Positions 1-60,834 of a stretch of 64,000 nt of DNA are shown one piece after another (positions within the stretch are counted from its first letter, which is position 1; every line of letters starts with the position of its first letter). The position numbers and the translations under genes were made by a program. Below the pieces are notes generated by a model, which was given only the letters and a program-made list of their open reading frames with translations, did not search any database and had not been told where the DNA came from. The DNA comes from Rhizophagus irregularis (taxonomy: Eukaryota), in contig NC_089429.1 of the NCBI RefSeq assembly GCF_026210795.1, positions 4,216,001-4,280,000 on the forward strand. The letters are read 5' to 3'.

Positions 1-640
1 CGTTTATTTGATAAATAAAAAGGACCATCACTTAAAATATTTACATTATTTATTAATTCATCTAGAGTTTTCTTTTCTGTAAATCAAAATTTTAATTAGT
101 TACTTACCATATTAGTTTTACCATTACATTATTTACATATAATATATTTATACTTAACATACCTGTTCTCTTTGTTACACTTGATATAAAAATTTCAGGT
201 CTGTCAGGTATCATATCTTGGCGAAAATTTGTATCCGTTGCATTCAATTTATTATCAGTATCTTCATGGCCATCATTTTCAAATTTATTTTCGTAATCAT
301 CACGATCATCATAATCAAGTTGTGTAAGTGGTGTAAGCTCTCTTGTAGGATGTATATTAAGTACACTACTTTCAGTAAAAGAATTTTTCATTACTGGTGC
401 AAGTGGAGGAGTATTTGTGGTATTTTTATTTATTTGACAACTCGTAGTAAGTATATTATCATCAGGAGTTATAGATTCGCTAGATATATTACTATTAGTA
501 TTAGTAATAGAAGAATTTTTTGTTTGACGTTTTTTAATAGGCATATTGGAAGTTAAAGAAGCATTGTCAGCATTTTTAGTATTTCTAGTTATAGGTCGTC
601 TTCCAGTAAAACCTTTTTTAATTCCTTTACCACGAGGCAT
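1..640 (-). CDS. Hypothetical protein, truncated by the window edge; basic, low-complexity N-terminus; divergent partner of the transposase
   Basis: ATG at 640 (MPRGKGIKKGF). Intron 162-77 (GTATGT...CAG) restores the frame (EKKTLDELIINV...), which runs off the window start. Confidence 0.55.
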
Positions 641-837
641 ATTTGGTTTTAAAAAAAAGAATTTTTTTTAAGAAAAAGTCAATTATTAGTTTAATTTGAT
701 GAAGTTAAATACCGATCAATAAATCAATTGTTACACTAATATAGAATTTTATAGTGTATTTAATCATTAGATCTATAAAATTCTCATCTTTTTTTTATCA
801 AAATTCAAGATTAACGTTAAAATTTAGTTATAGAATA

Positions 838-3800
838 ATGTTTTTAAAAAAAATTAGAGCTAATAAAAAACAACATAAAAAATCCAACTTTCGTTTGCGT
901 AAATCTAGAGATACTCATTCAAATAATAATTCATCTATATCTAATCATACTATCATTTTAGATAAACAACAAAATATTTGTGAAAATAATACTTCATCAC
1001 AATCAAATACGAATAATTTTTATTATAAAATTAATGAAAGTATTAATAATAATCATGATACTAGCAAAAATAATAAAGATTCTTATCACAATTTTAATGA
1101 CTTTAACGAAGATCTTATTGATGATGATTTTACAGAAATTTATGATACTGGTGAAGAATTTAACAATATTGATGAAAATGTAAATGGAAATAGTGATATT
1201 TATGGAGAATTTAATTATATTGACGAAGATTTTACAGAAAATTGTGATACAAATGGGAAATTTAATGGACGAGAATATGATAATAATAAAAAACAAAATT
1301 GTTATTCTGGAGATGCAGGACCATATTTTCCAAATTTTACTATATTTTTATTATTTTTATGGGTTATAAAACATCAAATAGGTATATGTTTTTATCTATA
1401 AAATTACAGTACTACTTTTTATATTTTTATACTAATCATATATATTTTTAAAATTAGGTTTTGAAGCATATAAGGATTTTGCAAATATTGTTAAACATCC
1501 CAAATTTAATGCAAATGATGTTCCATTTTCACTCGCAACTGTTAAAAAGTATCGAAATGGGTTACCTCTCCTTCCATTTAAAGGATATACTGTTTCTCTT
1601 AACAATCATAATACACCATCTACCTCTAAACCTACTACTTAAGCTTTTATTTTTCCCTTAAAAAATATTCTTTGCCATATATTATCAAATCCACAGCTGC
1701 ATGAACATATGTACTTTGGTCCAGGTATATATTGTGAAAACAAACAGGAAATATGGCATGGAGTTCTCTGGCACAAATCTCCATTGTTTGGTACTGAACA
1801 CATTAAATTAAATGAAACAATTTATAATCTTGGTGATTTCATCAAATACTACAATATACATACAATCAATCAATTATGTTATGGTCGAATTATATCAATC
1901 TTACATATTAATGATTCTCATGATATTTGTATTAGAATTGAAAATATTATTGAATATAATTCATTGCCTTTTCAACTCAAATCACAGCAAAGAAGAAATG
2001 CTTCTTATGATGGATGTCTATGGATGACTGATTATACAATAATTATTAATCCTATAAATATTGTGTCAAAAGTAGATATTTGGTTAACAGATATTGGTGA
2101 ACTCAGCAATTTTCAATATTTTATAAATGAAATTGTATATTGTATCAATGGGCAGTGAAGCACAAGACCAATTGATTTACGACATCATCATCCAGTTGAA
2201 TATATAACTACACAAAATACTCCATCTAATTTACCAATTTACAAATTTTTTTTAGATATCTACATTGATAAGTTTGGTCCATTTCGTAATGCATACCATG
2301 GTATTGGTGGTATTTATTTGCAGATCGGAAATATGCCACAGATTTTACGTCAAAAACTAAAAAATCATTTTCTTATTGGCTTTATTCCTTTTTCAGCTTC
2401 ATGTGATGAGGTGTTACAGCCACTAATTAATGATATCCAAGATCTTGAACATGGTTATGAATTGGAAATTAGTAACCAAACTGTTTGGGTTACTGGTGGA
2501 TTGGGTGTCATAACAAGTGATTTACCTGAAGGTAATGAACAATCAGGAATCAAGAATCATAATGCACATTATGGATGCCGAAATTGTATGATCCATCATA
2601 ATAATTTGCATGATATTACTTTTGATATTGTTAAATATGCGTGTTACCATCACATAACTACATCTCATTTTGAAGATATAAGTAATGCTAAAACTCAAGC
2701 TGAACGTGAAATACTTTCTACTCAATATGGAATTCGTGAGAAACCTTCTAGTTTTGATAGTATTTCACGTGATAGACATATTCAATGTCCACATGATGCA
2801 TTTCATTGTATAGGTGGACTTGCAAAAGAAATGTTGCAATCAACATTTGGAATATTAAATTCAATAGGAGAGAATAAATTTTTAAATGTATGGCGTAATT
2901 TTGAATATCCATCAGTTTGGTCTCGTTAACAAAATCCTATTTCTCATTTAAACTCATATTTTTTTTCTGATTATCTTCGTTTAAGTATGATCATGCCATT
3001 TCTTATTAATAGATCATTAATATCCACTTCAATGCTAAATAGAACAATTGTTGAATTTTTAATTGAAGAAAGCAAATTTACAAAACGTCAAATAATAGAT
3101 CAATTTCTTAGTTTATGGGCATCTTTTTCTAAAATGGCATCATTAATATTTTGCAAAGAGTTTTCTGAAGATAATTACAATGATTTACAACAAAATATAA
3201 TACATTGGTCTGAAAAAGTTGGAAAGGTCTGTATCTAATTGATTTATAAGAGAATTTGTAAAAATTTGTCAATTACTTATTATTTTTTATAAATAAATTC
3301 ACAGTTTTTTCCTAGAATTACTCAATTACCAAACTTCCATATATTATGTCATTTTACTATGCATGCACGAAATTTTGCAACTCTGGTAAATGTTGCAGTT
3401 CCTACAAAAGAAATGATGCATAGACTATTCAAGGCAATGATTCCTCATTCTAATAAGAAAAATATAGAGATGGATTTTGTACAACGTGATAATTGTCTAC
3501 AAACTCTAAGATTTTTGTTGGATGGTGGTGTTGATAAAAGATATGATACAGAAAGACAATTAAATTTCAACATGTTATCAAAAGATCAATGTGTACGTGC
3601 ACTTCTTAGTTCATGGTACATTTTGCCATCTAAGTTTGATTTAGAACAAGATGATGATAATACATCTTTGCAAATAACATGTATGGACGAAAATTACATT
3701 AATATAAAAGTTCAAGGACTATATACTAAACACGATTTGCAAACTAATAACCTTGAGAAAAATCTTGATGACAACTTGTTTGCTGAACTTGGTCGTTCAT

Positions 3801-4282
3801 ATAATGAAGAGCTTGATTGTACTGAACATCTTACATCACGAAAAGTAAAATATTATAAAAGTATTAGTTATACTATAGTTGATGGTAATAATCAATCCAA
3901 TATAAGGCTTTGTGTTGGTGATGTCATAAATGTTTTAGAAGATATATCAGATGATAGAGAAACTGAACTTAAAACAATAACTTCTTATGCACAAATTCGG
4001 GCAATTTTTCTCCACACAAAAGATCAGTTACAAATTCCTTTTTTATTGTTAAACTGGTTTATTTCACTGGGTATTAATGATTCAAAATTAGGTTGTCCCC
4101 GATATAGACTTCAGCAACTATCAGATCAAACTTGGCGTCGAATTTATGCAATTAAATGGATAGATCACCAACCTAATAACCATTTTATACATCAGTGTCG
4201 AAAAACAGGTTGTGAAAATGGAAATCATGATAAAACCAATGTATATTATTTGCATAATATCTTTTATTATACTGCTATATAA
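838..4282 (+). pseudogene. Decayed DDE transposase of CMC(EnSpm)/Plavaka-like type with BAH-like segments
   Basis: Introns 1382-1457 and 3227-3304 join the ORF pieces in one frame. In-frame stops at 1640 (TAA), 2156 (TGA) and 2927 (TAA). Motifs YFGPG..WHG..W..SPLFG, LDIYIDKFGPFRN, DLPEGN...GCRNC, HDAFH, PNFH. Family assignment is from motif recognition only. Confidence 0.6.
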
Positions 4283-5105
4283 TATATTTAAATATTTGAT
4301 CAGCAATTAAATTTAAGTTGCATTATAATTTTTAAACTTTCTTTTATTTTATTACAGTCATTTGTCATTTTAAATAAAAAAGTTTTATTATTTTTAATTT
4401 CATTATAAATTTAATATAATAACTTGATTCAGACTGCTAAAATTCAAAGACAAAAAGTTTTGGCATTTACTATACTCTAGTTTAAATTTGTTCTTTAGGT
4501 ATGTCTTTTGAGAAAATCATTAACGATAGTTGTCATGTGTATATTTACTTATATAGATTTGGGAATTAGCAGTTTCTTTCAATAATTTTAACAAAAAAGT
4601 TTTTATTTGAAAAACTGCAAGATATATTAAGTGCAAAGAATAGACAACCAATTCTACTGCGTATATAATAATTTTAGATATACAGTATTATAATTATATT
4701 TTAATTAAGATAAAAATATATGTATTACGATACAATAGTATACTGTATACGATCAACTAACCTTAAAAGTCTAATCGATACTATAAATTACCTACTAACA
4801 TGTGATCGGCATAATAGGCACAGAAGCTACATAAGCATAAATATTTAATCTTGAAGTAAACATCGAATGAATTTTTCTTTCTTCCAGATCTATATCTCTT
4901 TATTATTTTTATTATTAAACTTTCTTATAAATTCTTCTAAATATTTATTATTTATTGCACAAATTTTGGTGATTTATGTTTTATGAAAAAAAAAACTTCC
5001 ACTCTTGTTTAAGAATTTCTTTGCCTTGTAGTGATTTTTAAACTGTTTTCACTTGAAATATACTAAAAACTTCAACACTAAAAAATTTGTAAAAGTTTGT
5101 TTGCG

Positions 5106-5500
5106 AAATGGATTACAAGGTAAAGCTAGAAAAGAAATATTTTTTTTTTATTTATTTTGTTAAGAACGTTTACTAACGTTCTTTTCTTTATATTTTATTT
5201 TTTAGAAAATGGTTTTTCAGAACTAATGGACGCAAGGTAAAACTGAAAAAAAATTTTTTTATTTATTTCATTAAAAATGTTTATTTACGTTCTTTACATT
5301 TTTATTTTTTTAGAAAATGGATCCTTGGATCTTTTAAGATAAAATGGACGTAAGGTAAAGCCAGAAAAAAATTTTTATTATTTATTTCGTTAAAAAATGT
5401 TTACTAACATTCTTTATATTTTTTAGTTTTATTTTGTTATTTTATTTCGTTAAGAACGTTGACTAACGTTCTTCTTTAAATTTTTTTTAGAAAATGGCTC
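5106..5500 (+). repeat. Tandem micro-exon/intron units (3)
   Basis: Introns 5120-5205, 5237-5313 and 5355-5490 (AAG|GTAAA...TACTAAC...TTTTAG|AAAATGG) with 31-41 nt exons similar to one another. Confidence 0.65.
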
Positions 5501-5997
5501 GCTTCCTAAGCAATGGCACCTTCGGAATTTGTATTTAGCAAAAATTTTTAAAAATTTTATTAGATGGTTTGATGCCAGAACGGGATTGAAAGCACGACAA
5601 GAATGAGATAAATGGCAATTGGTCAGGGACTAACTAACGAAAAGATGGAGTGTATTGGAGTCTTCTATAAAGAGTTTGTTCTCTAATCATTATTTCTTGG
5701 CCCTTTGTTTAATTTTATCTGTATGGCCTTGTTGTTCTTCTGCTTGTTCTAGCTTATAACGTATTTAGGTAAAGACCTTAATAAAGAATTTCCAAATAAT
5801 CTATTTTCTAAGAAGAAATTCCAGTACTTCTACCTTGGCCGGAGGGGTTGAAGCAGGATCTCTTGGAATTAAAGAGAACAAGTGAATATGAATTTTTGAA
5901 AAAACCCCAGACAGAATATACTGCAGCTTTCATTAAATTCATCAGGATCACGCAAAATTGAAAAGTGATCGGATACTTTAGTGATTCAAAAATAATG

Positions 5998-6197
5998 CAC
6001 AGGTCGAAATGCTAAAAATTGGCAAAAAAAATGGCGCGAAAAGCAGTGGCTATTCTTGGCTATTCTTGGCTATTCTTGGCTGTTTTTGGCTATTTACGAA
6101 TTAACCTATACTATTTGTAAATAGTTTATACAAATTTGCGAATAGTTTATGCAATTTGCGCCATTTTTTTTGCCTATTTTTGATCATTTGACGTGTG
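5998..6197. mobile_element. CACTA/CMC-like MITE, 200 bp
   Basis: Ends CACAGGTCGAAATG / CATTTGACGTGTG with inverted GGCAAAAAAAATGGCGC; 3-bp TSD ATG (5995-5997, 6198-6200); internal (GGCTATTCTT)n. Confidence 0.75.
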
Positions 6198-7254
6198 ATG
6201 GAAAATACAGTGCAGGCTTTCATGCAGAAAAATGATTTGAAGAAAGTATGGATGGTAAGGAATTTCAAAACAGTATATAGAGATGGGAAACGTAATAAGG
6301 ATAAGAAGAGAATAGAGGACAAGAGAGCTGCAAACTCTTTGCACAGTAAGGTAAATGATATTCTTATGCCACAAACGCCTCCAGAAAGGATTTACATGGG
6401 ACTATCAAATATGGTGACAAGGAATAAACAAAATTTATTACCCACAGAAATGATTATTGCAGAAATGAATCAAGGTCTAGGTGATTACAAGAAAAGGAGA
6501 ACGTAGATAGTGGCAGTGATGGAAACGATGATGATGATATAGGAATAGGTAATTTGGAAGAGTTAGCTAGCAAACCTTTAAAATGAGATAATGTAGCGCT
6601 GAACAAAGTTGTTGAGATTATAAAAAATTATTAAACAAACGAAAAGATAAAGTATATTTCATATCAAGCATCGTCAACAAATGCGCCTGCCAATGTTAAG
6701 GAAAGGTTAAATGGAAGAAATAAAAGGGATTTTTGATCAGAACTCCAACATGATGGAATGGAAAAAATTAACGTGGAAGTGGTGAGTGTAATATGAGCAG
6801 AGTATGATATAGTCAGGTCCTTAAAAGATTGGGTGCTTAAAGAAAATAATTTCTTTTTTTTGAGCCAAAAGTCATCAGTATGACGAAACAAAATAAAATA
6901 TTCCAGAAATATAACCACCCTTAACAATGATTTCAAAAAAAGGTTGAAAGAAGAAAATTGGAGGACCGATAAAGTAGAAGTAGGAGAAAAACAAGTATTG
7001 GTAGAGTCACCATCAAGAAGTGAATCTGAGAAAGCGAAGGTGAAGGTGAAGAAAAGAAGAAAAGAAGAAAATAGGAGATAGATAGGAATAGGAATGAAGA
7101 TTAATCGAAGTCACGTAATTTTACGTAAAAAAAATTTTTTTTTTTTCTGATAACAAAGTTTTGAAAAGATGCTAGTATAAAATTAAATTTTGAAGAAAGG
7201 TTCAACCGCCAGGAACTTCTCTTAAATTGCAGAAACCTTTCGGACACTTTGGAA

Positions 7255-8760
7255 CTGATGGAAGGTACTTAAAGTTACTTTTTTTAATTAGGAACATTAG
7301 TAAACATTACTAATATTCCATTTATTTTTCTTATTGTAGGAATTTTCAAGACGCTTCAGAACCAATGAAATGCCTTGAAAGGTAATTAAAAAAGGATCGG
7401 GGTCTTTTTTAAAATTAGGAACAGTAGTAAATATTACTAATGCTCCATTTTTTTATAGAAACCAACCTTTGACTTTTTCGGTTAAACAGATCAGAATCTG
7501 CATATCATGTGATTTAAAGCACAAAATACTAAAATTAAGCGCCAACTTTTCATTTTATTTAACAATTCTAGGAATATTTAATGATAAGAGAAGAAATTGA
7601 GTGTTGAAGATGAAAAATGAAGACTTGTGAGTTATTTGGACGCTAATCTTGGGATTACCATAAGAACAATGGATATGATCTTCAATGTAACAAGAAATTG
7701 AAATACTGGCGTTAGCTGATCCCATGAAAGGTTGGAATCTTCAAGATTATTGAATGGATCGTATTCTCTTACATCACACAGCCCATGATTGTTGATAAAT
7801 TTCATTGGCTACAGAAAAGACAAATAAGATGAACGTGACGATACTAATTTTATGATTGAAGTGGTCAACTTGACTGATCGTGAATAGAGAATAAGTTATA
7901 TATATATTTAGGATTAATTGTTGTTACATATATATTATATAAAAAAGCAATTACAAATGTTTAATAAATAAGCTACAAATATATTAATAACTAATTATAA
8001 AGTAATTATATACTGAATTAAAATACATTTTAAATATATTTTTATAAAGCATTCATAATATCTTTGATGTATTTGTAAATGATTATAAATATATTATAAA
8101 ATAGTTACAACATATATTTAACATCAATTATAAATTAATTGCATATTTAATTGAATACAATTACAAAACAATTTTAAAAGTATTATAAAATGATTTGATA
8201 TGAAATTACAATTATAGATAACATCATTTGTGATAGTTTCAAAATTATAATGTAATAAATATAAAATAAATTATAGCAAAATGATTTCAAATACATATCA
8301 AAAAAACTATAATTTTTAGTAAAGTATGTCTTTTAAACAGTTACTAATTTCTTTTTTTTCGTTATTCTTCAGCTCTTTAGATGTAAAATTTGGCAAAAAT
8401 ATTATATTCTTTTGACAAAATATTTTAGACTTTGAGTCTTTCAGTGAAATTAATTTTCATTTTTTATTTTTTTTAATGAACTATTTTTAACAGTTCAATT
8501 TTTCTTTTATAAATGGACTTGGTTATTTGAATATTAGATATATGAAAATTTGGTAATAAGGAATTACTTTTAATAATTAAAAGAATAATACTAATAGTAT
8601 TTTTAATTCTCTTCTATAGATATTAACTTTGAACTTGAATATTGCTTGAGATTGGATATTTTGACATGAAATCAGGTACATATATTTAAAGAAATTTCTT
8701 TGATTTTGTTTTTATTCAAAGATATTAATGATGCTCTTTTTATTTTTTTTTTATAGATAT
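7255..8760 (+). repeat. Further short intron/micro-exon units
   Basis: Candidate introns 7265-7339, 7382-7458, 8324-8372, 8553-8619 and 8676-8756 with similar short flanking exons; no long ORF. Confidence 0.45.
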
Positions 8761-9131
8761 TCAATTTTGGGCTTTAAATACGGAGTCAGTACCAAAATTT
8801 GATGCAACTAATAGGAGTTGTAATAATAATTTTAAAATTAATAGAATTAGACAGGTTTTAATATTTAATTATTGAAGCTATTTTTATTTAATACTTTTGA
8901 TTAATTAGCTTTAAAAAGAATATATAATAATATATAGAACATAATAAATAAATGTATTAATAATAATAAATAAAATATAATAAATAAAATTAATAAATTA
9001 AATAATATAATAATAGACAAATATAAATAAAAAATACTTTAAGGATTCCTTATTAGCGAATTTAGAGTCCTTAAGGATTCTATAAAAATTTTATGATAGG
9101 GAATCCTTGCTAGTGGGAAAGGTTTATTAGA

Positions 9132-12100
9132 CATCACGAAGTTAAACTAAGCATTTACCAACCATTTATTAAATGCTTTAAGAATATTTAATTTAAGTGC
9201 TTATTAAACAAGTTTCAACGCAGCTTGTATTCGATAAGCATTATTTTTTTATTGCTAATTGATTAATAGAAATTAATATAATTAAATTACTTAAATTAAT
9301 TATATAATAAACACCATTTTAGTATTGATATTTTATTATGGCATAATTTATATTTTATTATTATATTTTATACATTTTTCTATTATATTACATATAATAT
9401 ATAGTATCTTTATATTATGACTAATTTACTTTTTCAGACCTTACTACTATTTAAATTAGAAATTTGCGAAATTCCATATATAATAAGATATTATATTCAG
9501 TAACAGCCAAAAAGAAACAAAATTAAATAATGCATTCTCTGGTTGTAGCAGAAAGTGCGGTATAAAAAAACTGAAGGCAGAACAGACCACCACAAGCCAC
9601 AGATCATCACTACATATAGAGACCAGGTCGTCTAAAAAAAAGAAAAATTGAAACGTTAATAAAAACGTTCCGCTAAAAGAAATATATTCAAAAAAAATTC
9701 TCCTTACCAAAATTCTATGCGTCCAAAGATCTGAGCGTCTAGAAAAAAGATAAATCAAAGCGTTAATAAAGCATTTCGTTAAAAAGAAATAAATCAAAGA
9801 AAAATTCTAATACCAATTAAAATCTACGCATCCAATAATCTGATCGCCTAAAAAAAGAAGGATTGAAACGTCAGTGAGAACATTTTGCTAAAAGAAATAA
9901 ATTCAAAAAAATATTTTTGATTTTTCCTACCGATATTCCATACCAAAGGCCCGACCATCTAAATAAAAAAATTGAAACGTTAAAAACGCTTCATTCATTT
10001 CGTTTAAACAAATAATAAAGTAAAATAATAGCCCACCAAATCTAACATGTTCAGACCTGAAGAGCAAACTGACTAAAAAAAAGAAAGAAATGAATATGAT
10101 TAGTAATCTTCGTTAAAAGAAATAAATTAAATATAAAAAAACTTACGAATTCGTGCCTAGGAAATTTTGAAGTTGACTAAAAAAAGAATAATAAATAAAG
10201 CGTTAATAAACATTTTGTTAAAATAAATAAAAGAAAAAGTTACTTACCGAAATGTCACATCCAAAGAAAACTCGCCTAAAAAAAAATGAAAAAACGAAAT
10301 TGTTAGATTAACATTTCATTATAATAAAAAAATTTAAGAAACAAAAATATATACCGTAATCCACGTGTTCAAAGACTTAAAAAAAAGAAGCTGTCTAAAA
10401 AAGAGCAAGAAAACGAAACATTAGTAAATGTTTCATTAAAGAATAATTAAAAAATAGCCCCTCTCCTACCAAATTCAAGTATTCAAAAATCCAAGCCGTC
10501 CAAACTCCAGAAACCAGAAAGATCTGCCTAAAAAAGAAAAAGAAACGAACTGTTAGTATGGTTCATTAAAAATAAAAAAATTAGTAAAAAAAAATTAAGA
10601 CTTACCGAATTCCCAAGCCATCATCAATTTATTTTATTTTTAGTTAAGCTAAAAAAGAAAAAAAAGTGAATTGTTAATAACAGTTTGTTAAAGTAGTTAA
10701 ATTAAGAAAAATAAAAAAAACGTACTTAAGACTCACGTGTCAAAGAAACCAAGAGTCTAAGTGAAGTTGTTCCTAAAGAAAAAGAAAAGAAATGTTAGTG
10801 ATATTCCCAAAATACACAATTCCAACTCCTTCAATTTACAACTTACCTTTCATCAAGTTTCCTAGCCGAAGTCTGAGTCCAGGTGTTGTCTCTATAGAAA
10901 AGAATGAAATGAACATTAACATTAGTAACATTCTTAAATAAAAGAAAAAGTTCCAGCTTCACACATCCCTTCCCTTAACTTACCATAAAGTTCCTTGCCG
11001 AAATCCAAGCTCAGGAAAAAGGAAGAAATAGTAAAGTTTCATAATGAAACTTACCATTATTGAGATTTAATATTACTGCCCGATATTTCAAAAAAAACCT
11101 ACAAAAAAAAAATAGCAAAAGAAACGTTATTTAGCGTTTCTATTGAAAAAAAAGGAAAAAATGATAAGTTTCACTATGAAACTTACCATTTACACTTTAC
11201 AGAAATCCCGCGTCCAAAAAATTATTTCTTGAACTTACACTGGTTTAACATTTTCTTTACCGGTTAGACTATTTTTTTGTAGGTTTCAGTTTTAACTAGT
11301 TTCGAAGTGGTTTTCTACAAAATAATAAAAATGAAGTAAATGAAATCTAATAAAAAAAACAAAATTAGAACCAAAGAAATGAAAAACGATAATAAAAAAA
11401 ATCAATCAACTTACCAACCAGGAATATTCCTAAAGAAAAAAATTGATTAACTTTTGTCATTTCACTTGAACATGAAAGGTTTTATAAAAATGTTTTTTTT
11501 TACAATTTCATTGAATTAGCTTTTAGCTTTTTAACATTTTATACGTGATAGTAAATTTTTTCTAACGAATTTCTATATAAAAAAGATTATCAATTGAATC
11601 AGATCGATAATCATAACCGATACTGGAACTAAAAAAAAAAATAAAATTTTTTTAGTTTAAATAGACCAAATAGACCGAAATTGTATATATATAGTATATA
11701 TATATATTGAATATGATCATGATCTATAAATGTTAGAACTATATGTATATCATATGATATACTACAGCGAAATATCAAAACAGTTTTGCAGGTTTTGACA
11801 GTTTTGCAGTTTCGCATTTTATGATTTTACGAAACTAATTTTGGTAGTTTTGCATATATTACACCGCAAAACCCCTACATTTTTAGTTTAAAAAAAGAAT
11901 TTTTGGTTTTTTTTATGGGTGATTTTAACTTTTAAACAGAAGGGGAAAGGATAAAAAAGAGGAAAGAACAAAGGAAAAGAATAAAGGAAATGGAAATGGA
12001 GAGAGTGAAAGGAAGGAAGAAAAATAGAAGAGTGAAAAAAGTGAAGCTTCGTTGAAAAAAAAATTTGTAAAAAAAAGATTAATCTATATCACGTGATACG

Positions 12101-12501
12101 CGTAATACTAATTTTGGGACATGATTTTTTTTTAACAAGTTTATATTATTACATCAAAGGTAAGCCCCTAAGACTTAATATAAAAATAACAAAATCTAAA
12201 TGCTTATATTCTATGTTTTTTTAATAATAAATTCAAATGTTTAATTGATATTTTTTTTTCATAGCAATTAATAAGTATTAATTTAAAATATTTTTTAAGT
12301 GTTTTGTTAAAGTAGCAATTATGAAGTATTTAATAATTAATATTTAATTTGTAATTTATTACAATGATAAATAAATGCTTATTTTAAATACAAATAGATG
12401 TTCATGAAACATTAAGCATTCAGTAAATATAAAATTTAAGCATTTATTAAATAATTTGTGTTTGATGAATACAAGTCTAACATTTGATCAACTTCGTGAT
12501 G
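9132..12501. mobile_element. Non-autonomous TIR element (CMC-like), 3.37 kb
   Basis: Perfect 12-bp TIR CATCACGAAGTT (9132-9143) / AACTTCGTGATG (12490-12501); possible 2-bp TSD GA; AAGCATT/AATGCTT subterminal repeats at both ends. Confidence 0.7.
9632..11414 (-). ncRNA. Putative multi-intron non-coding transcript: about 15 tandem intron + micro-exon units
   Basis: Minus-strand GT...TAG introns at 9632-9707, 9739-9813, 9848-9930, 9959-10036, 10073-10146, 10177-10247, 10276-10354, 10395-10469, 10528-10605, 10649-10725, 10773-10846, 10892-10983, 11099-11186 and 11315-11414. Exons are mostly 28-58 nt. Splicing exon 10394-10355 to exon 10275-10248 gives stops in all three frames. Transcription is not shown. 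Confidence 0.55.
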
Positions 12502-12721
12502 GAGATCTTTACTAATTACAGGATTTTTGGAATCCCTAAGGATTTGCATCCCAAAAAATTTACTGATGTTTTCCAGTAATTTTCAAGGTGGATATACATT
12601 CAATTAAATAATGTATCATTATAATAATTATTAAAAAACTTGTAAAAATATCCAAATGAATGAAGGACTTTAAATAAATAAACCCTATCTTGTTGGAATA
12701 TATTTAATGGATACTTTATGC

Positions 12722-13119
12722 TAGTACTTTGATCTGGTTGATCTATTGATTAGCATCACAACATTTTTCTATTATTTTTGTCAAACTATAATTTTTGTCA
12801 GATTTAAAAAAATTATTCTTCTACAAATTTTATTAATTTTGGCCAAACTTATAGTTTCAACTATACATGCCACCCAAATTATTTTGGGCTGCCGTAATTA
12901 TAAGTAAAATCCCAAATTCAATTATGACATCCCAAATTATTTTAGCATTTTACATAGTAAATTATATATAAATTGAATGAATTACGACATCCCAAATTAT
13001 AATTATGGCATTCCAAAATAATTTGGGCAGCATGTATAGTTTCAACTCAAATAAACTGATGCCAAACTGTAGTAAACTACAGATTGATCTGTTAAAAACC
13101 CATCCAAATCAAAGTACTA
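12722..13119. mobile_element. hAT-type MITE
   Basis: TIR TAGTACTTTGATCTGG / CCAAATCAAAGTACTA; 8-bp TSD CTTTATGC (12714-12721, 13120-13127). Confidence 0.85.
12864..13036. mobile_element. Small TA-flanked MITE nested in the hAT MITE
   Basis: Inverted ends TACATGCCACCCAAATTATTTTGG / CCAAAATAATTTGGGCAGCATGTA flanked by TA; internal CCCAAATT repeats. Confidence 0.7.
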
Positions 13120-14751
13120 CTTTATGCAATGCACTTTAGAAAGTAATGATGAAAATTATAAGGAGATGATGCAATGAGATTAGTGAATCGTTGGAAATCA
13201 TGGGAGCAACCTTTACTTATCTTATCTTTCTTTTTTACATCCATTCTATAAATTATGATTTTTTACACCTAATGAAAAAATTTTTCACATTAATCTTAAT
13301 AAGTGAGCCCAATACTATTTCTTTAAATGATTTGGTAAAAACCAATTTCTATGATATAAGAATTATTAGCATATAAAGAAAATAAATTTCCATTTAATGA
13401 ATCTTCTTTACAAGAACTAGAAAAAATCCTTTAGATTATTGGTCATTTCTAAGTGATTCAGTGCCAGAATTATTACAATTAGCAACTAAATTATTTAGTA
13501 TATATGTAAATTCTGCTTCATGTGAGTGGCTATTTTCAACTATGGGATTTTTGCATACTAAAAGACGAAATAGATTGAATGCAAGTATTCTTTTTTTAAA
13601 TATTAGCAATATATTTTATATTTTATCGTCAGTTCATCACTAATTCTATTTTAATATTTAGTATTCTAAGGTTCTATGGATGGCACAAATTAGAGGTGAA
13701 CTTAAGAGACAAAAATTTATGAAAAATATTTCTATTGAAAATGAGCAAGCTAAAAATGACAGAATAGCTGTACGATGAAGTAGATTGGATATGGATAATG
13801 AAGAAGTATTTTATGATGAAAGTGATAAAGAAAATGATGAAAATGATGAGAATAATGAATGTGATGAATTTATAAGATCATGGTTAGAAATATTAGTAGA
13901 AGATACTAATAATGGAATTAATAATATTTCAGGTAATCAAATAGATGAAGATTCTTCCGAATTCAATGCATTACTTGAAAATCAAATTCATCCTGCAGAT
14001 AATGACGATGCAAAATGGGATTTAACAACTTTATTCAAATTTGGGTTAGAAGTACCTGGCTTTTTTTATGTGCTTCCTTAATTACATTAATTACATGTTA
14101 AAATCCAAATGTATATAAATAATATCAAATTATCAATAAAATAAATAAATTTCTTTTATAAAATTTTTAGTAATTCCAGTATTCCAAAATAAATTTTTGT
14201 ATTCCATTATTCCAAACTAAGTTCCAATATTCCAGTTTTCCATTGGAATTTTAGTAAATGCATTGAAATACTGGAATACAAAGACTGGAACACATGTTTC
14301 CGGTTCCAATATTCCAGTAAATGCCAACCCTGCGTGCACGTAGCTTAGCATATCGGTTAAATAGTATTTTGGCTTTAGGCCCTGTTCAAAGCTAGCCTTG
14401 GTGAAAGGTTGTGACACACTATACGAACTCGCACAGTTGTTATTCAATCGTGGCTGAGATTCGTTAGGTGTAATTACAAATCCTTTTATTATTGGAGTTT
14501 ATTGTTGAAATTTAACGTAGTTATTAGAACTTAAGATTATTTAATTAGCAATTTAATAGCCCCAATAACTCAATCTCAATAAACTAACATTTTTCAGAAG
14601 AGAGCGCACATCATCATTATAACACATAAATGTTGTTATAATTTTTAATTTTTTATTGATTATTATAAATTTCCTATTTTAAAGACTACTTAACATCAAA
14701 TCTAAACATAATACAATCTATTAATTATTAAATTAAAGATACAATTATAAA

Positions 14752-15727
14752 TTATAATTTTGCGGGTATTTTATTTTTTACATTAAGATCTTTTATAAAT
14801 TCATCATCAAATAACCTTTCAGCTAAATAAGTTCCTTCGACAAATTTCATTCCTTTTTGTCTTCTATCCTCTCTTTCTTCCTTTTTTTTTTCACTATCAT
14901 TCTTTAAATACCCACTACCTATAAATAATTCTTCGGGTCTGATCGTTTTACCGTTAGGTTCTTTAAATATACATTTTGATAATCCTAATGAAACAATTTT
15001 ATTCTCTTTATGAAGTCTAAAATAACTTACTAATATGAGCCATTTTTGATCCCATGTTAAAATTCTTGTATATACTGAGTAATTTGAAAATGGTGGAATT
15101 TCATGATTGAAAATCATTAAGACAGCTAGAGAAAAAAAAATGTGAAGAATTTTGAATGAATAAAAATAAATTAATGCTTTTACAAATATTAAAAAAAAAA
15201 ATTCCCACATTTTTGCATTATAACTACTTTATGATTCCACATATAGTTTGCAAATGATGCTGCAAAGAAATGTCCTCTTGCATGATCTAACACTTTGTTA
15301 TACGAACTAAAAAATAAAAAAATTTCAATTATGACGTAAAATCTCATATAAATATAATATAGCATATATAAATTACCTATTGTTCATATGCCTATTTGTA
15401 TCTAACTATTTTTGTAAAAAAAATAAAAATAAAAATAAAAATAAATAATACATAAAATAGCTTATTGTTTGTCTTTTCCCTAGTTTATACAATTATATAT
15501 ATGTATATTTCTCACAAGAAAAAACTTACATCATCAAATAAAACACTATATGTGCTTTCTGTAGCTTGAAATAAATCCCTATCTTCATTATTATTATTCC
15601 GATTTTTAAAAGTTTCTAAAATTAATGGAACGGTTCTGATATGATATGCTAACGGAAATGATTTTATATTCAGAAGGATTAATATAAAGAAAAAAGATTT
15701 TATTATTATTGGAACATTTGAGGCCAT
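14752..15727 (-). CDS. Hotdog-fold thioesterase-like protein (4HBT/THEM6-like) with N-terminal hydrophobic segment
   Basis: Exons 15727-15530, 15405-15377, 15306-15209 and 15125-14752 splice in frame to give ...FDDLDTNRHMNNSSYNKVLDHARG..., the D-x-D-x-N-x-H-M-N-N-x-x-Y motif. Confidence 0.8.
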
Positions 15728-17054
15728 CTTGATCCTTCTTTTTTTTTTATTATTCTCTTTCTTATTTATTTCTTGGTCAATTTATTTTTTTTTGTTTTTT
15801 AGAAAACAATTTTAAAGAGAAAACGTCAAGTAAATTTTTTAGTGAAGATAGCCTTTTATGCATGTCGGTTATCGGTTGGTAAATTTCCCGAATAATTAAA
15901 TCTATGAAGATCCTATTTAGGTCCAAATTACACAAACTTACCCGACATAGGTAATACATTTTTAATGAGATCCTACCGTACAGCATGAATGGGTAAATCA
16001 AATTTGGTTGGTTGATCTCGGGCTCTAATCTCGGGCCCGAGACAAATGATTCCCAATATAACAAGCTGCCTTTTTATTTTTAATTTTACTTCACAGAGAA
16101 ATACATTATCAGTAAGAACCACAGAAAATTAACATATTTGATACTGTAAAAAAGCCACCTGATGGGACTATCGTAGCTAAAAACCGCACTACTCGTATCG
16201 ATAAGGCACGCACCAGAGCTACCTTTAGTTATTCGGGAAGTGATTTATCCGGTATCATGTGATTTGAATATTGCCTGAATATATATATGTATATAATATG
16301 CCTGATACACGATTTATTATCGTAATTAGATAAGTAACATATAAAGACGTATGGACGTAATTTAAAAATGAGTTAAGTTTGCACCTCTAGTTGTTACATA
16401 CTAAACCCGCATGCACATGAGAAAGCGGGTCACGTGTAATGATAACATTACTATGTATGCAATGAGCCTTCAAAACGTAATCATTTTTAATTATAAAATA
16501 CCGGATAAACGAGAACGATTACATAATATTTTTATTAAAAGAAATTGGGCGTTCTTTTTTTTAAAAAATCTGCACTGCATTTCTTTAATAAACATATACC
16601 AAGGGTACTTATATTAATGTCGGAAATACCTAGACTCCTAGAGGCATGTAAAAAGCAACCTGGTTAAACCAGAAATGTACCTAATCGTGCAAATTTTCAA
16701 ATACAATAAATAATCCCATGAACCTAACTGTCACCATACTCGAATAAAGATGTAGTAAAAAATAATCGAAAATATATATGAAAAAAAAACACTAAAAACA
16801 AAACTACTCGAACCTAACAGATTAAAATCTAAACTATAACTGATCGTAAAATTACAGGTAATCTCCGTTAAACGGAAAATGGGTGTTCTAATCGGACCGT
16901 CAATTAGAACAGATTTAGAACAATATCGGTAAAAGTTTTATATTGATATTAATCTGAAGTGATTTCCAAAGATGATTATTTAATTCAATTTACAAGAATT
17001 CTTATTTAAATGAGATTATTTTATAATTACACCAAAATATTATTACTACTAATA

Positions 17055-20000
17055 TCATTCACCTAAAATTATATTACTAGTATCGTTCTCCCTCCTTTTT
17101 TCACCCTTCTTTTTCCTTAATATTCCGGTACTCCAAGTTCTCTTATTTAAATCTTTATTCCCCCATCTCCATCTAATATATTTCTTATATTCGGGATGTA
17201 TTATAACATCATCTTCACATTTACCAAATAATGGTACTCCCTTTCTAAGTCTACCATAAGTTTCAACGAGAACCAAAAATAATGAAAGCAAAGATGTTAT
17301 AACAACCAAATTTAATGAATTAACTTTACTTAATGGTAACAATAAACAAATTGTTCCAATTATGAACCTCAAGATAATTCGATAAGACTAAAGAAAAAAA
17401 AAACAATCGTGAATTTTTTTTGAAAAGAGGTAATTGATCAAAAAATATTAAATTTCGTGAAAGGTTTACCTTTGGAATTCTTAGATAATTATCTTCGTCT
17501 AATCCTTTATGTAATACTCCAATTATGCCCATACAATATAACGAAATTGCTAATGTAACACTATATAACCAAAATAATGGAGCATTATGAGGATCATATG
17601 AATCATTATGTGAATCAACTTCTGTTGGAGTACTTTCGGAAGGAGAGCTACTTTCAGCTACTAATGCATGAGAACCGACTTCATTTGTTGGAATGTTATG
17701 AGCACCAGGAAAATCACGAAGTTGTACAATTTTTCCTAATGACGCTCTATAAAAAAAACTTTTTTAATTTTTTTTGATATTAAAAATTCAAAATTCGATA
17801 TTTAATAAAAGAAATGTACCCAAATGCAATTAACGCCATATTCTACAATAAAAATATATTTCGTTAATATAAATAATTTTATTCATTTGTTTTTTTTTTA
17901 GTAATTTTTAAGATAAACTTACCAATGGAAAATGAATTACCCCAAATAAAAGACCGGTAACTATATGTCTTCTTAAAGCATGTTGAAATTGTTTACTACC
18001 GTCCACAATAAAATATATCCAATGTAGATTGTAAGCAATCAGTAATCCTAATATAGCCTATTAAATATTTTTAACCGATATATTATTAATTTATTTTGAT
18101 TAAAAAAAAACAATATTTATTCTGACCTTCCCAAGTTGACCATCGGGTCGTGGATTAAAACTGGTATATAAAACTCCAAGAACCTATCACCATAAATAAG
18201 TTTTTCTTAATAATCATTTTTAGAAAAACGCGTTAAAGACGTATTCATTTATCATATTTACTTACACCCTCTCCCAAAGCTATAATAGCGAATAATCCTA
18301 ATCTTTCACTATAATGTTCAATATTCATTGCGGGTCTATACTCTGACAACTCAAATATTGAGAATAAGTGTTTCCATTTCCATTGATATTCTGTACCACG
18401 AGTTCTCATTGCTTTATGTGGATGTGGTGAACGACTTGTGGTTGTCGAAGTTCGAGAAAATGGCGAAACTGGAGAAACTGGAGAAGTTGGAGAAGAAGGA
18501 TCATTTACAGGTGCTTTATTCTCACGTGTCGTATCAACAACTACTTCTTCTTTTGCATCTATTTTATGAAAAAGTCGTCTTCCAAATCGAACATATAATG
18601 GCATTAATCCAGACCATAAATTCTCTATTTACGATAAATAATTCGGTAATTGTAAAAAAAAAGAAATCACGCTTTTTTCCAAAAATATATATATATATAT
18701 ATTTAATTACCAAATGCGATTGCAGTCCACATTGCTATATTAGCCTTATTGCGTGGAACAAATATTGCTACAATCCAAATTATGCATGGAATGAAAACTC
18801 CCCATGCAGTATTCATAAATGATGTGCGAAATAATGGAATCCATGCCGCATGTAATATATGCAAAATCATGAATGTCAAGCGTGCAATAACGTATGACAC
18901 TAATTAAAATTTTTTTTTAAATATTAAAAAAAAAAAAGAAAAAGAAATATAATTTAAAAATATTAATTTTCGTATTTACCGAGATAAATCGTTACAGTAT
19001 TATCGAATATATCGAGTGCGTGTGTACCCATTATAATTACAAGCATCATCTCCTATATCAGTATATCAATCTTAATATAGAAACTTTTATAACATTTTAT
19101 AAAACAAATAAATAACTTTGGACTTACAAATAACAAGAAAAATTTCTCAAATAAGTCTTCTGTACTGTAAAAATTCATATAAACGGTCATATCCAGCCAT
19201 ATTTTATAAATAGGATAACTAGATGGAAATATTTCTTTAGTTTGCTGCGCCACATGAACATTTTCTTTGCGGAATCCGATAATTATAATACTCACAAAGT
19301 TAAAATAAATCTTTCAATGTTAGTACCAGAAATATCTTCAACTAAATCATGACCTAAATTTCCGATAACAGCTACAAATATCAAATCCCAAAATAATTCC
19401 GTAAAACTAACTCTTCTTTCTTCGGCTTCTCTATGTAAGTTTTTATTATGCCAATACTGTCTTATTTTAGGTTGTCTCATTATTCTATCATATTTATGTT
19501 CATCTTCGGATGAATCATCATCATCTTCTATTATTTCAAGATTATGCAATGGACCAAATGTATGTATTGTAGCATGAATTGTATGTTCTCCATTTTTTGA
19601 GTTGCTATTATGATGGCCTAGTCGTGATAATTCTCCTGCAAGTGTATCAAGTTGGTTTGATACAGAATCGGAACGTGCCAAAGCTTCTTCACGTTCTCGT
19701 TCTAATTGCTCAGAATGAGATTTCAATTCATTGATTTTTGCTTTCAATGCTGCTACCTATTAATACGAATGTATTGTACAGTGAATTAATTTGACGAATC
19801 ATGTAACATCCACCAACTTTAACTTACATGCTCGGGGCTTCCGAGTACACAACAATTAGGGGCTTCTCCACTTATTACATCCTCTTCTTTATCAACAATC
19901 AACAATTTTGTATTTCCGATTTGTAATTTCTTTGAAAATTCTGTTGATGGAACATTCTGATCTTCCTGTGTAACTACTATTTCTAAATCTCTATTTGACG

Positions 20001-20121
20001 TATTTGGAATTGTTTCCTTAATTTGATCGGTTTCCTTAGTTTGATCTCCATTTGAAATTGAGTTATCTATTTCATTTAATTCATTATTTTCATTATTGTT
20101 AATAATATTTTGGTCTGTCAT
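17055..20121 (-). CDS. LtrA (low temperature requirement A) family membrane protein, copy 1, multi-exon
   Basis: ERRVSFTELFWDLIFVAVI and EHYSERLGLFAIIALGE motifs, many transmembrane stretches, about 10 GT-AG introns; ATG at 20121, stop at 17055. Confidence 0.8.
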
Positions 20122-20728
20122 ATTTTTCAATAGACAAATTTCTCAAAGTTCTTTTTTAGGTTTATATATATAATTAATTTGAAGGCGTTTTGGTTCAACG
20201 TTACTCAACAATTTACAGTTTAGTGATAAGCAACATTTATTTCTCGATTTATAATGATTTATTTATTTCGCAGTAAAAAAACGAATTCAATCTAGTTTGT
20301 GCTTAATAATGGTATGATGTGCAACCCTAGATCATTATTAAGCATTAAGAAAATTGATCATGTGATTTCACAACGACTTACAAATTAATCGACGGGCTTC
20401 CTTTAAACTTGGACTACTTGTCCTGGACCTAGTCGAAAATTTTAATTGGGAAGCCGGTGTGTTTGATTTTTTGTATTATATATTTTCTTTCCTGTTTCTT
20501 AAGAACGTACATAAATCATCATTATTATCTCATTTATTTTTTTCTTTAAATAGAATTTTAGAATTTTAGAATTTTAGAATTATTAAATTATTATTATTGG
20601 ATTTGGTTAAGATACTGTATAATATTAGAACTGCTATTGTATATAAATATTTTTATTATATTTGTGATATCTGTGAGGATGAAAAATGATAATACTTCAT
20701 ATACAGATGTACTTTTTGACTTTGTTAA

Positions 20729-20917
20729 TGTTATGGAAAAAGTTCGGGTTGAGCGATTGAGTCGGTTCGTTCCATTCGGTTTGTACATCGGTTCTATATC
20801 GGGTTTGATAAATTTTGATAAGTACTGACTCGAATCTGGACTGAAGTGATAAAAACCGATTATGGAGCCGAACCGGTTTTTCGGGTTGACTCTGCTCAAC
20901 TCGAGTTTTCAATAGTA
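20729..20917. mobile_element. Degenerate MITE
   Basis: Imperfect inverted ends (GAAAAAGTTCGGGTTGAGC / GCTCAACTCGAGTTTTC) around a GC-richer CGGTT/AACCG core; no clear TSD. Confidence 0.4.
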
Positions 20918-22167
20918 TCGGTGCGAGTCATCACCGTCCCTCAGTAAAAATAAAACCAACATCTACAGGCTTTAATAAATATTGTGCCTTTTAAACAATT
21001 ACATTTTTAAAGTAAATATTGTTAATCACTGGATCGGCTTCTAACGTTTCACAGTCAGTTGGCAATAAATACAAACACTAAGCTTATTTACGGTATAGTA
21101 ATAAATCATACCATATATGCCTAGGGAAAACATGTTTATTATTGTAAAAAGGAGTACATTGTACGCGTATCAGATGTGCGTTTTTTTATAAGATTGGTAA
21201 GCACTAAAATTATTAAAACTTAATTATATATCATAAAATACACAGAAAAATAGAATAAGCAAAAAAGGTTGCACATTTGTTATGGTAAATAAGGAGTTGA
21301 CATTGTGTAATCATCAAATTTCGCGATATGCCGATTTTAAAAAGATTCGCGAATATGTTTTCTAGCACAAAACAATTTTATCCAATTAAATTCACTGAAG
21401 ATAAGAATCTGAACCGCCGGTGATCCACTGATACAGGATAAGGATGCTCTCACTCATCGATTTTTAAAATAAAACCTTCGTTTAAAGTTTTCTTTCACCC
21501 ATTCAGAGCACTTCCTGAAAATAATGCCAAAAAAAAAGATAATCACCGCGCACAAATATCAAATGTAATACATAGGAAATGTGGTATTGAAAAAAAAAAA
21601 TTTTTTTCTTTAATATTATAGTATGTATAGGTAGTACTGATCAGAATGGCACTTGCAATGATCATTGGCTAAACTGCGCACTGATCATTTGGTCTCGACT
21701 ATGATTCCGCATATACAATCATTTGGTAAAAACTAACGCTACGAAAAACTGGATTAATGGACTTTCTCTTCGTCTTTTCGTAAAATTAAAAATTTTGGTG
21801 AAATCTCACCGGCATGGAGAACTTCACATGTTAAAAGCCAAGTAACACGGAAAAGTATGTAAATATTTTTTTAGTGGCGTAAGTCGTACTGTCGTAGAAA
21901 AAAAAATCAGCATTTAAATAAACTGAGATATGTTCCAAATCGGATCTAGTCAGGTTTGGATTGAAATTAGCCTAGGAATATATGCATACCTTTATATAAC
22001 GATATAACGATTAATCCGTAACGGAATAATATTAACCACTTTATTATTAAAAGAAAAATAAACATATTATATATACATTTTTTTTTCTATTAACTAAACA
22101 TTAGGCAATTTTAGTCCAAGTTTTTTTTTTCATTATAATTTTTTTATACTTCACATTAAATTTATGA

Positions 22168-38166: not shown

Positions 38167-38510
38167 ATTTGAAAATCAAATTTTTTAAATTTTTTTTATT
38201 TTTAAGAAACAGAAAGTGGGTTGTAAGCTTACATGAGACGATAAGCCAAATAAGCTAATATTTATATATTTTTTGCATCAGATTTTCAACAAATTAGGTG
38301 ATTTAAATATGAATCGGAGAAAATTTGGAATCAAACATTCTGATGTATTACCAAATAAGTATTTTAAACAACGCGTTTGTACTTAAAATCACATTCTTAT
38401 ACTTATACGCGTGATTAATTATAATAAATAAAATCGACGTGATTGTACCGTATAGGCGTATACACCGTGTACACTTGATTCACTTGATTCCTGATTTTAA
38501 AAATTTTATA

Positions 38511-38941: not shown

Positions 38942-39253
38942 TAGTACTATAGTACTGACAATCCCAATAAAAATTAAAGAAATCTTCATATTATAATCCG
39001 TTATATTTGGGACGGGTATTATACCGTCGTATGACCTGTATTTTAGGCATATCGAGATCGAGGTATCGGCTCATTCAGGTGTATCGAGCGGATTATTTTA
39101 TCACGTAAAAAATATGTTAATTGTGTAAATCAGCATACAAAGTACTTTTTGTTTATTCATTTTTAGACTTCGATATATAATACAAATACATACTGTACGT
39201 CATTCGAATTAAAATTTTTTTCTTATTCATCTTCTATATTAACGACCTTTAAA

Positions 39254-46426: not shown

Positions 46427-46436
46427 AAAAAAAAAC

Positions 46437-48040: not shown

Positions 48041-48064
48041 AAAAGAATATCATTATGAAATTGA

Positions 48065-59144: not shown

Positions 59145-60290
59145 TAAGTACCCTTTATTTGCTCAAATATCCTGAAATACCGATCGCTTACAAAAAAAGA
59201 AAACCAAAATAATTGGTAATTATTTCATTAGCCGGATAATACCGATGCTTTGATATTTTATTCACAAACGCTCAATTCAGTTTGCGATTGGTCAAAACAG
59301 GATGGTTCAATACAATACATTGATGTTTTCTAAAAAGTCGGAATGATGGGATGGGAAGATTATTTGAAATTGTTGACAGCTTTATAAAGGAAGGAGCGAA
59401 GTTTGGAAAAGAAATAATAATTCAAATTAAGTCCAAGGATCTATACCGGTAGTGAAAGTATTCTATAATTTATCAAATATATTGATCTCAAATAAATGAA
59501 TATTTAATTTGGATCTCAGTTATAATATCTTGAAAATCCCTTACCCATCCAAATATCGCGAATACCAGTTGTCTACAAAAAACATGAAATAATTAGTAAT
59601 TATTTCGTTAATAAAGAAATGAATCAAAAAAAATGAACCTTACTTACTCAAATATCCCGAATACCGATCGTCTATAAAGATGAAAAAAAAGAAACAATTA
59701 GTATTAAATTGTTTCGTTAAAGAATATTCAAAGAAATCCCCTCATCAATTACCATGAAATCAAGTATCCCGAAGTACCGATTGCCTACAAAAAAAAATAA
59801 AATAAAATAAACGAAACAATTAGTAATCGTTTTGTTAACAAAAGAAATATAAATTATTTTTAAAAAAAAACCCTCACCTAGTCAAGTATCCCGAAATATT
59901 GATCGTCTACAAAAAAGAAAATAAATGAAACAATTAATAATCATTTCGTTAACAAAGAATTCTTTAAAAAGAACTCACATCCATTCAAATATCCTTGCCC
60001 AAAGACTCGAAAATTCAGCCGTCTAAAAAAGAAATATCAGAACTTAGTAAATGTTCTGTTAAAATAAACAACTAAGGTAAAATAATAAATACCCTTACCA
60101 AAATTTCCACGCGCCTGTTCAGACCATCTAAAAAATGGAGGAAACGAATGTTAGTGTTCTTCGCTAAAAGAAACAAATTAAATTAAAAAAAAAATACTTA
60201 CAAAGGAGTTTGAAGAAATCAACTAAAAGAAAAATGAAACGTTTTATTAACGTTTCGTTAAAAATTATAAAAAATTCAAAGTTTTACCTT
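59145..60290 (-). repeat. Tandem intron/micro-exon array upstream of the hAT transposase
   Basis: Minus-strand introns at about 59573-59643, 59672-59752, 59785-59877, 59907-59978, 60023-60098, 60128-60201 and 60222-60287; exon consensus ACGATCGGTATTTCGGGATAYTTGA; a decayed unit near 59150-59230. Confidence 0.7.
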
Positions 60291-60834
60291 CGAAAACCTA
60301 TATAACCGGCCTGAAACTTGTATAACAAAATTTTTGAAATTTAAAACAGGTTCCGGGCTTGATAATATTGAAAGCTGTGACAATGGAGATTCGGAAATTT
60401 GTTGATAGGAAGCATTTATAGCAAAATCAGTTGATTTTCAGACGCAGTATTGTGGTTATCAGTGCTTCCGATTATCGATCTTGTAGTATCATGCAAGTTG
60501 ACTATCGGTTTACCTGTGTGAGTAAAACTACTATGCAAAATTCGTAATTAATTACATATTATAATCAAGTATTTTCCCGAAAAAAAAATCCGAATTTTTT
60601 GGAATTCTACACTTCTGAAGATAAAAAATTCGCTACTGAGAATTACCCTTTTAGGCTGATCTGTGGCTCGTACTTAAACTATCATAATCATGTGTTTTTC
60701 AGAAAGAATATTCCGAAGGTTTACCCTTATATTAACTATATCTGGTATATTATCATAGTTTACTTCTGGACGCTATTTTTAAATTTCAAACGGAAAGAAA
60801 AAAATATATTTTCAGCATTAATTTCATATAAACT

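Follow-up and report, generated by a model that had tools for sequence, protein, structure and literature searches.

The window, by which we mean the whole 64,000-nucleotide stretch of Rhizophagus irregularis DNA analysed here, is AT-rich (17-37% GC per kb) and holds many transposon remnants and BTB-SPRY paralogues. The latter form a cluster at 36760-53673 on both strands and are 70-85% alike; for one of the encoded proteins, the nearest Atlas clusters are mostly from Mucoromycota. LtrA-like genes, tandemly duplicated about 5.1 kb apart, occupy 17055-24883 of the minus strand, while GC-richer repeats of 52-76 nt are found at 50585-51088 and short MITE-like inverted repeats at 5998-6197 and 12853-13047. 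In this region, crowded with transposon remnants, the minus strand of 9632-11414 presents donors, branch motifs, pyrimidine tracts and TAG acceptors at regular spacing (Table 1).

Raw RNA reads of runs X21 (480 reads) and X24 (151 reads), which belong to two studies and were mapped onto positions 9421-11635 of the window only, revealed that these signals are used: a minus-strand chain of 14 GT-AG introns of 71-163 nt is spliced in both. An earlier note, made from the sequence, had predicted an array of about 15 introns here and had named spliced reads as its test; the splice joints present in both runs confirm that the array is real. Each joint of the chain has 3-62 reads in X21 and 4-33 in X24. 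There are 20 joints in total, and 13 of the 15 listed have CT..AC ends, that is, GT..AG on the minus strand. The joint 10386-10470, with nine letters between, resolves to intron 7, and the joint 10651-10740 probably reflects the alternative donor of intron 5. Intron 3 contains an extra donor-like site at 10983, which is not among the listed joints. The evidence of splicing consists of RNA reads, for which an intron-less genomic copy could formally be an alternative source of joints. Since both mate directions are present in the libraries, the strand of the transcript was deduced from the GT-AG orientation.

The gene comprises 15 exons, of which the 13 internal ones measure 28-76 nt and are separated by introns, and the last, 3' of intron 14, is about 150-200 nt long. 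About four-fifths of the gene is intron and the spliced RNA measures about 0.9 kb, so that an RNA that is transcribed, spliced and longer than 200 nt, as lncRNAs are, is produced. This RNA seems self-contained, because few reads pass the ends of 9421-11635 (5 of 480 in X21 and 1 of 151 in X24); at the 3' side the reads end near 9430-9560, with no ORF downstream. Expression is, roughly, 39 (X21) and 24 (X24) reads per kb per million. Both RNA data sets derive from a different strain, which shows nine fixed or nearly fixed exonic differences from the window in each run and uses the same intron chain. Splicing is efficient in X24, where six introns with an informative position yielded 109 junction reads versus 12 intron-position reads (109/121, ~90% spliced). 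The same six introns gave 160 versus 134 in X21 (160/294), a spliced share of 0.54 that likely still includes paralogous reads. Indeed, clusters of variants absent from X24 mark many of the X21 intron reads, and loose ends run into other exon-like sequence; these intron reads probably derive from paralogous arrays, and the reads with variants or loose ends suggest that more paralogues are expressed.

The spliced RNA is non-coding, with no ORF beyond chance. Only 3 of the 13 internal exons have a length that is a multiple of three, and the joined exons hold 20-27 stops in each sense frame. In the sense direction, the greatest length free of stops is 60 codons (shuffle median 56), and no ATG frame of the spliced RNA exceeds 36 codons; insertion of the other strain's exonic differences gives the same result. 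The ORF list for 9040-12570 contains short or intron-spanning frames only, the longest of which (9456-9806) has no Pfam match. Among seven related arrays from the soil metagenomes described below, six have no frame exceeding phase-randomised controls. A frame of 133 codons in L023 (p 0.009) is not kept in its relatives L013 and L030, and a 128-codon frame in L001 was rejected as coding because stop-poor exons explain it. The earlier note's reading of the joined exons as non-coding, which a long conserved ORF in intact relatives would have overturned, thus stands: no ORF is shared among the related arrays. A micro-exon protein-coding gene was likewise rejected, as no conserved open frame results from splicing in the array or in the seven related ones. 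Gene callers probably mis-annotate such arrays as hypothetical proteins.

Table 1. Features of the array, its surroundings and its relatives in the window; reads are given for X21 and X24 in that order
Feature	Position	Strand	Evidence
Non-coding spliced transcript unit	9430..11630 (ends approximate)	-	Read depth in all 30 bins
Intron 1, 100 nt	11315..11414	-	3 and 9 reads
Intron 2, 140 nt	11099..11238	-	6 and 4 reads
Intron 3, 163 nt	10892..11054	-	14 and 6 reads
Intron 4, 74 nt, opens the run of 11 contiguous homologous units	10773..10846	-	27 and 11 reads
Intron 5, 77 nt; 10736 is probably a minor alternative donor	10649..10725	-	28 and 18 reads; alternative joint 5 and 1
Intron 6, 78 nt	10528..10605	-	20 and 20 reads
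Intron 7, 75 nt, intact branch-point stem-loop, folding z -4.4	10395..10469	-	26 and 9 reads, joint displaced by 9 letters
Intron 8, 79 nt	10276..10354	-	30 and 11 reads
Intron 9, 71 nt	10177..10247	-	29 and 13 reads
Intron 10, 74 nt	10073..10146	-	34 and 17 reads
Intron 11, 78 nt	9959..10036	-	25 and 19 reads
Intron 12, 83 nt	9848..9930	-	24 and 22 reads
Intron 13, 75 nt	9739..9813	-	47 and 26 reads
Intron 14, 76 nt	9632..9707	-	62 and 33 reads
Possible decayed left arm, candidate	9040..9330	+	12-nt word and GGATTCC-type repeats common to right arm
Transposon-end-like stretch facing the array; TAGGGG start, 9-nt subterminal-like repeats, end-like motif 11862-11877	11771..11877	-	No partner found
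CATC-type element end, possible right arm of an old enclosing element, weak	12300..12568	-	Resembles ends beside related arrays
Second array, 7 predicted introns and one decayed unit	59190..60300	-	7 profile matches at 59569-60272, E 2e-7 to 7.5e-3
Third, short predicted array, same branch-point hairpin type	5120..5491	+	Weaker profile match 5161-5491; 85% identity over 79 nt to L001

The array belongs to a dispersed family. A profile was built from the 11 short introns of the 9632-11414 array and searched across the window, where it retrieved the second array and, more weakly, the third; further weak matches lie at 7286-7454 and 8463-8507. The family pattern itself has two matches in the window versus none in 100 shuffles. 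A motif scan of soil-metagenome contigs gave 33 loci (handles beginning with L), 25 of which are arrays with at least two units on one strand; the remaining eight (L002, L005, L006, L011, L017, L020, L021 and L028) are not arrays and were left out. These relatives reach up to 19 profile matches and predicted chains of up to 16 introns, and one motif joins arrays whose exons are unrelated. Arrays are present in 18 of 26 non-redundant metagenome groups, a count that two further overlaps would reduce to 16. The GC content of the contigs, and a eukaryotic hAT transposase in L015, fit an origin in related fungi, while viral contigs gave no match to the family pattern. Within the window, intron-like clusters without ORFs were also noted at 7263-7570, 8319-8860 and 12160-12264 (all on the plus strand), and the pair 7279-7327 and 7406-7454 carries a different long hairpin over the branch motif.

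The units are related head to tail, as in a minisatellite, and nearly perfectly so in L013 and L023. The period of about 105 nt that the earlier note had assigned holds in the 3' half only (105-110 nt); across the last 11 units it is 99-133 nt. The repeats of L013, L023 and L030 comprise exon plus intron and are almost perfect, which shows duplication of whole units in tandem. In the 9632-11414 array, 2 of 45 exon pairs versus 23 of 55 intron-body pairs lie above z 3, a comparison that is biased by the shortness of the exons and by T-rich order. To judge by its sequence, this array is older than those of L013, L023 and L030.

Within the introns, an inverted repeat with the consensus arms AACGAAACGTT and AACGTTTCGTT surrounds the branch motif, the branch A lying mostly 20-27 nt from the intron end. 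We aligned 115 of the 146 parsed units, confined to introns of 66-90 nt and with one mis-parsed row of L026 remaining; L003 and L027, which duplicate L026 and L024, had been left out beforehand, as had five L030 units common to L013. In this alignment 77.7% of the hairpin cells are paired, and two-sided changes number 52 versus 30.4 in shuffles, with none of 500 shuffles reaching 52. Two of the five measures, namely the counts of pairs with two-sided changes and of pair types, show no excess over shuffles. Double mutants of the inner CpG are complementary in 18 of 21 cases, spread over five and six loci, and the outer CpG pair shows no covariation. Such covariation is predicted both by selection on RNA structure and by template-switch mutation, and the compensatory changes could also come from shared descent. 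A branch stem of at least seven pairs is present in 89 of 125 related units versus 2 of the 14 introns in the 9632-11414 array, and a second hairpin, enclosing the donor, in 67 of 125 versus 1 of 14. Hence the hairpin is largely eroded in this array, although splicing works. Among seven control introns of host genes or transposases, three form a stem of seven through A/T runs, and none has the motif.

None of the 44 GT/AG letters of the 11 contiguous units has changed, and all are used, as against a mean column identity of 0.73. The earlier note had claimed that splice signals persist here beyond other sequence and are used without a coding frame, a claim that would fall if the dinucleotides were no more conserved than their neighbours; these counts uphold it and fit selection on splicing. 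A search by the hairpin alone gave 152 units; in these, 16-36 nt downstream of the branch point, YAG persists in 127 and AAG in another 13, a retention of 140/152 compared with about 0.75 expected for two letters at the hairpin decay rate, itself inflated by CpG sites. Such retention would favour selection on splicing, an argument weakened by homogenisation and by ascertainment, the array having been chosen for its intact splice sites. Decayed arrays do exist, as in L019, the 5' units of L001 and donor-less repeats in L029. In positions 1-1000 of L029 (as also in L004, L009 and L033), acceptor-plus-exon tandem repeats without donors stand directly upstream of a normal array, perhaps as a derived state.

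The arrays also stand out in CpG composition. In eight array stretches the observed/expected CpG ratio is 1.25-2.3, with TpG and CpA depleted; elsewhere it is 0.25-0.9 (five transposase stretches), 0.25 and 0.57 (flanks) and 0.32-1.13 (eight host-gene stretches). Transposons of R. irregularis are CG-methylated (PMC8647823, in part). As a compositional signal, CpG retention fits an escape from methylation and equally a young CG-containing unit; the enrichment may reflect only such a unit, whether young or homogenised. For the idea of intron-rich self-marking, which the earlier note had raised as a hypothesis, this retention is a single and indirect sign.

The earlier note had also proposed a terminal-inverted-repeat element without a transposase as the carrier, a claim that gains partial support in relatives. 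No transposase lies inside 9040-12570, and inverted ends flank the arrays in two sets of relatives: the overlapping contigs L030 and L013 have a 32/32 inverted end on either side of the array, and in L015 the array sits between 13-nt inverted ends with an imperfect 8-nt match resembling a target-site duplication. A similar element end lies downstream of the array in L016, while most other relatives have no recognisable element end in the available flank. At the 9632-11414 locus itself the arms are weak and an enclosing element is not confirmed. An inverted-repeat scan of 1-17000 found no bracketing pair around the array; the best candidate arms, 9000-9420 versus 12150-12620, score 191 against a shuffle maximum of 164 under lenient scoring, and 50, level with ranks 6-8 of 532 window tiles, under standard scoring. 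Inspection of the flanks revealed no target-site duplication at the candidate ends. The single end-like motifs at 11862-11877, 12568 and 14317-14332 have no partner, and dedicated partner searches for the first and third were empty; those ending at 11877 and 12568 face the array unpaired. The stretch that contains the first of them is presumably hAT-like.

The second array in the window has a clearer setting. It lies inside a hAT element, on the transposase strand and about 300 nt upstream of the hAT start (a DUF659 gene), between the transposase and the subterminal repeats. Eleven copies of the 13-nt subterminal motif of this hAT lie at 55861-56047, with inverted copies at 60554, 63711 and 63731. 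The whole of 55790-63800 is a nest of elements, in which the hAT, with its array, encloses a MULE-like element (60561-63688), which in turn encloses a Tc1/mariner element (61642-62939). The MULE-like element has inverted arms of about 160 nt and a 9-nt target-site duplication, and splits the inverted motifs of the hAT.

Our leading interpretation, which we hold tentatively and at not quite an even chance, is that the locus encodes an lncRNA carried by a transposon, and that selection maintains its splicing, likely as a mark of self that counters silencing. The array is an efficiently spliced non-coding RNA gene built of tandem micro-exon-plus-intron units. Unequal crossing-over or slippage would multiply the units in whole-unit steps, so that the splice pattern is preserved, and transposons would disperse the arrays, a context seen for the second array and the two bracketed sets of relatives rather than for the 9632-11414 locus. 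The stem-loops would serve to present the branch point, and the donor site as well in younger subfamilies. The benefit, as a hypothetical step, would be escape from RNAi or CpG methylation: a locus marked as host-like would be kept transcribed and unmethylated. A broader version, possible but rather doubtful, is that DNA transposons of arbuscular mycorrhizal fungi carry a self-amplifying 'splicing cassette' of micro-exons and hairpin-tuned introns, whose sole job would be dense recruitment of the spliceosome, licensing the element as self. If true, this cassette would be a transposon counter-defence against RNAi and CpG methylation made of splice signals alone.

HUSH, from which introns protect, is a vertebrate system. 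In that protection (PMC8770142, in part), as in the RNAi driven by stalled spliceosomes in Cryptococcus (PMC6232588, in part), introns or efficient splicing tell self from non-self. These pathways of other organisms are a precedent for the self-mark logic, and neither source, in the part available, describes an element with a dedicated intron array (PMC8770142, PMC6232588). For these fungi, the literature consulted on the question shows no intron-sensing silencing pathway.

The strongest competitor is a neutral one, which we consider possible though on the whole unlikely: a spliceable minisatellite, amplified from one intron-exon unit by slippage behind a transposon promoter, would have no function, with duplication of whole units and homogenisation keeping the splice signals and template switching keeping the palindromes. 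The free drift of exon lengths and frames is as it would predict, as are the decayed and donor-less arrays and the erosion of the hairpin at 9632-11414; the surroundings are packed with transposon remnants, and ascertainment favours intact arrays. However, exon similarity has nearly gone in this array, yet all 11 contiguous units splice, and the same chain is used, at the expression given above, in a strain that has nine fixed exonic differences.

A host transcript for small structured RNAs, in the manner of a snoRNA host, appears improbable. Its product would be the excised hairpin introns or a structured terminal exon, in keeping with the non-coding, intron-dense layout, the conserved intron stem-loop and a conserved 58-nt tRNA-like element that ends several related arrays. 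Against it, Rfam and ARAGORN returned nothing at threshold, and the seven related loci gave six sub-threshold Rfam matches, none of snoRNA type, although uncurated families escape Rfam. Moreover, the tRNA-like element is antisense and does not occur beside the 9632-11414 array, and the hairpin overlaps the branch point and is eroded there. A polycistronic source of intron-derived RNAs, put forward in the earlier note, is disfavoured by the same want of Rfam matches to known RNAs.

Two further readings are each a shade less probable still. The first, also from the earlier note, is deliberate stalling of the spliceosome, which would feed siRNA production against the host transposon as in Cryptococcus. 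Stem-loops cover part of the branch sequence, and the donor too in many related units, and X21 has many intron-position reads. Yet X24 (109/121 spliced) argues against the inefficient splicing that stalling entails, many X21 intron reads look paralogous because their variants are absent from X24, and the arrays have kept their CpG instead of losing it. The second is an orphaned, intron-rich 5' leader of a transposase gene that has lost its coding part, a reading suggested by the position of the second array upstream of the hAT start and on its strand. By contrast, the reads of the present array end without an ORF to follow, the arrays of L013, L016, L023 and L026 have no transposase downstream in the available flank, and the transposase of L015 is on the opposite strand. 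Finally, the earlier note's nursery of introner-like elements, which would insert singly into genes, is hardly credible. Intron bodies do resemble one another more than exons do in the 9632-11414 array, and arrays whose exons are unrelated have a motif in common. Yet in young arrays intron and exon are duplicated together in tandem, the motif occurs in 0 of 7 host-gene or transposase introns (a small sample from the window only), and inspection by eye found no target-site duplication around individual introns.

Several known systems resemble the selected lncRNA that we favour in one respect or another. Pack-MULE, Pack-CACTA and MITE-like elements are non-autonomous elements with terminal inverted repeats whose cargo consists of captured gene fragments. 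L013 plus L030, and L015, are comparable in that a few kb without a transposase lie between inverted ends, but the cargo here is a self-amplified non-coding splice array, and the 9632-11414 locus has no demonstrable paired ends or target-site duplication. The snoRNA host genes of Neurospora and the vertebrate GAS5/UHG are likewise non-coding, with short exons and many introns. The introns of our array, however, are paralogous repeats of about 75 nt, and box C/D or H/ACA RNAs were not found in them, Rfam giving no match in the window and none of snoRNA type in the seven loci.

Introners, introner-like elements and sister stwintrons are similar spliceosomal introns with internal secondary structure; theirs, however, are single and at unrelated gene positions, whereas those of the array stand in tandem with exons in a non-coding RNA (PMC12403724, in part). 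The spliced, transposon-derived lncRNAs of Blumeria hordei are also fungal, non-coding and transposon-associated; they are mostly antisense to transposon genes and have a mean of 2.3 exons, with fewer than 1.9% exceeding five (PMC10648671, in part), while the array has 15 exons from a tandem unit and lacks an ORF on both strands. Glomhopper CryptonA elements, from the Glomeromycota and so likely from the group of the present fungus, include intron-rich copies as well, but their introns interrupt the recombinase ORF at inconsistent positions and form no periodic non-coding array (PMC13465315, in part).

While lncRNAs, tandem duplication and transposon cargo are known kinds, their combination appears undescribed. 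The literature searched, in which subscription journals are thinly covered and which included part of 10.1101/2022.10.19.511543, holds no description of such arrays, and the main texts of PMC8647823 and PMC11075540 contain neither 'intron' nor 'splic'. The curated repeat libraries in the supplements of these two papers may already contain the arrays as unclassified families. Unclassified repeats make up 24% of the Rhizophagus genome (PMC8647823, in part) and two-thirds of its transposable elements (PMC11075540, in part), a large fraction for which arrays of this kind may partly account. Furthermore, a natural case in which many introns are kept without coding constraint can test splicing itself as a selected function, and makes testable whether mobile DNA uses introns to appear as self. 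The family also offers one intron in dozens of natural variants, with stem-loops over branch point and donor, as a series for relating RNA structure to splice-site use.

The 58-nt tRNA-like element mentioned above lies at 55453-55510 (minus strand) of the window and recurs in L016 (1173-1230), L023 (3991-4047), L026 (1774-1831) and L027 (1009-1066), with a partial copy in L007 (1-19). It was not called by ARAGORN or Rfam. In several related arrays it stands in antisense orientation, within an exon located at the 3' end or close to it, and its G-U pairs favour the antisense strand. With a T-arm that has a B-box-like loop, an A-box-like word and a closing 6-bp stem, it is possibly the head of a tRNA-derived SINE, a small Pol III RNA or a TFIIIC boundary site.
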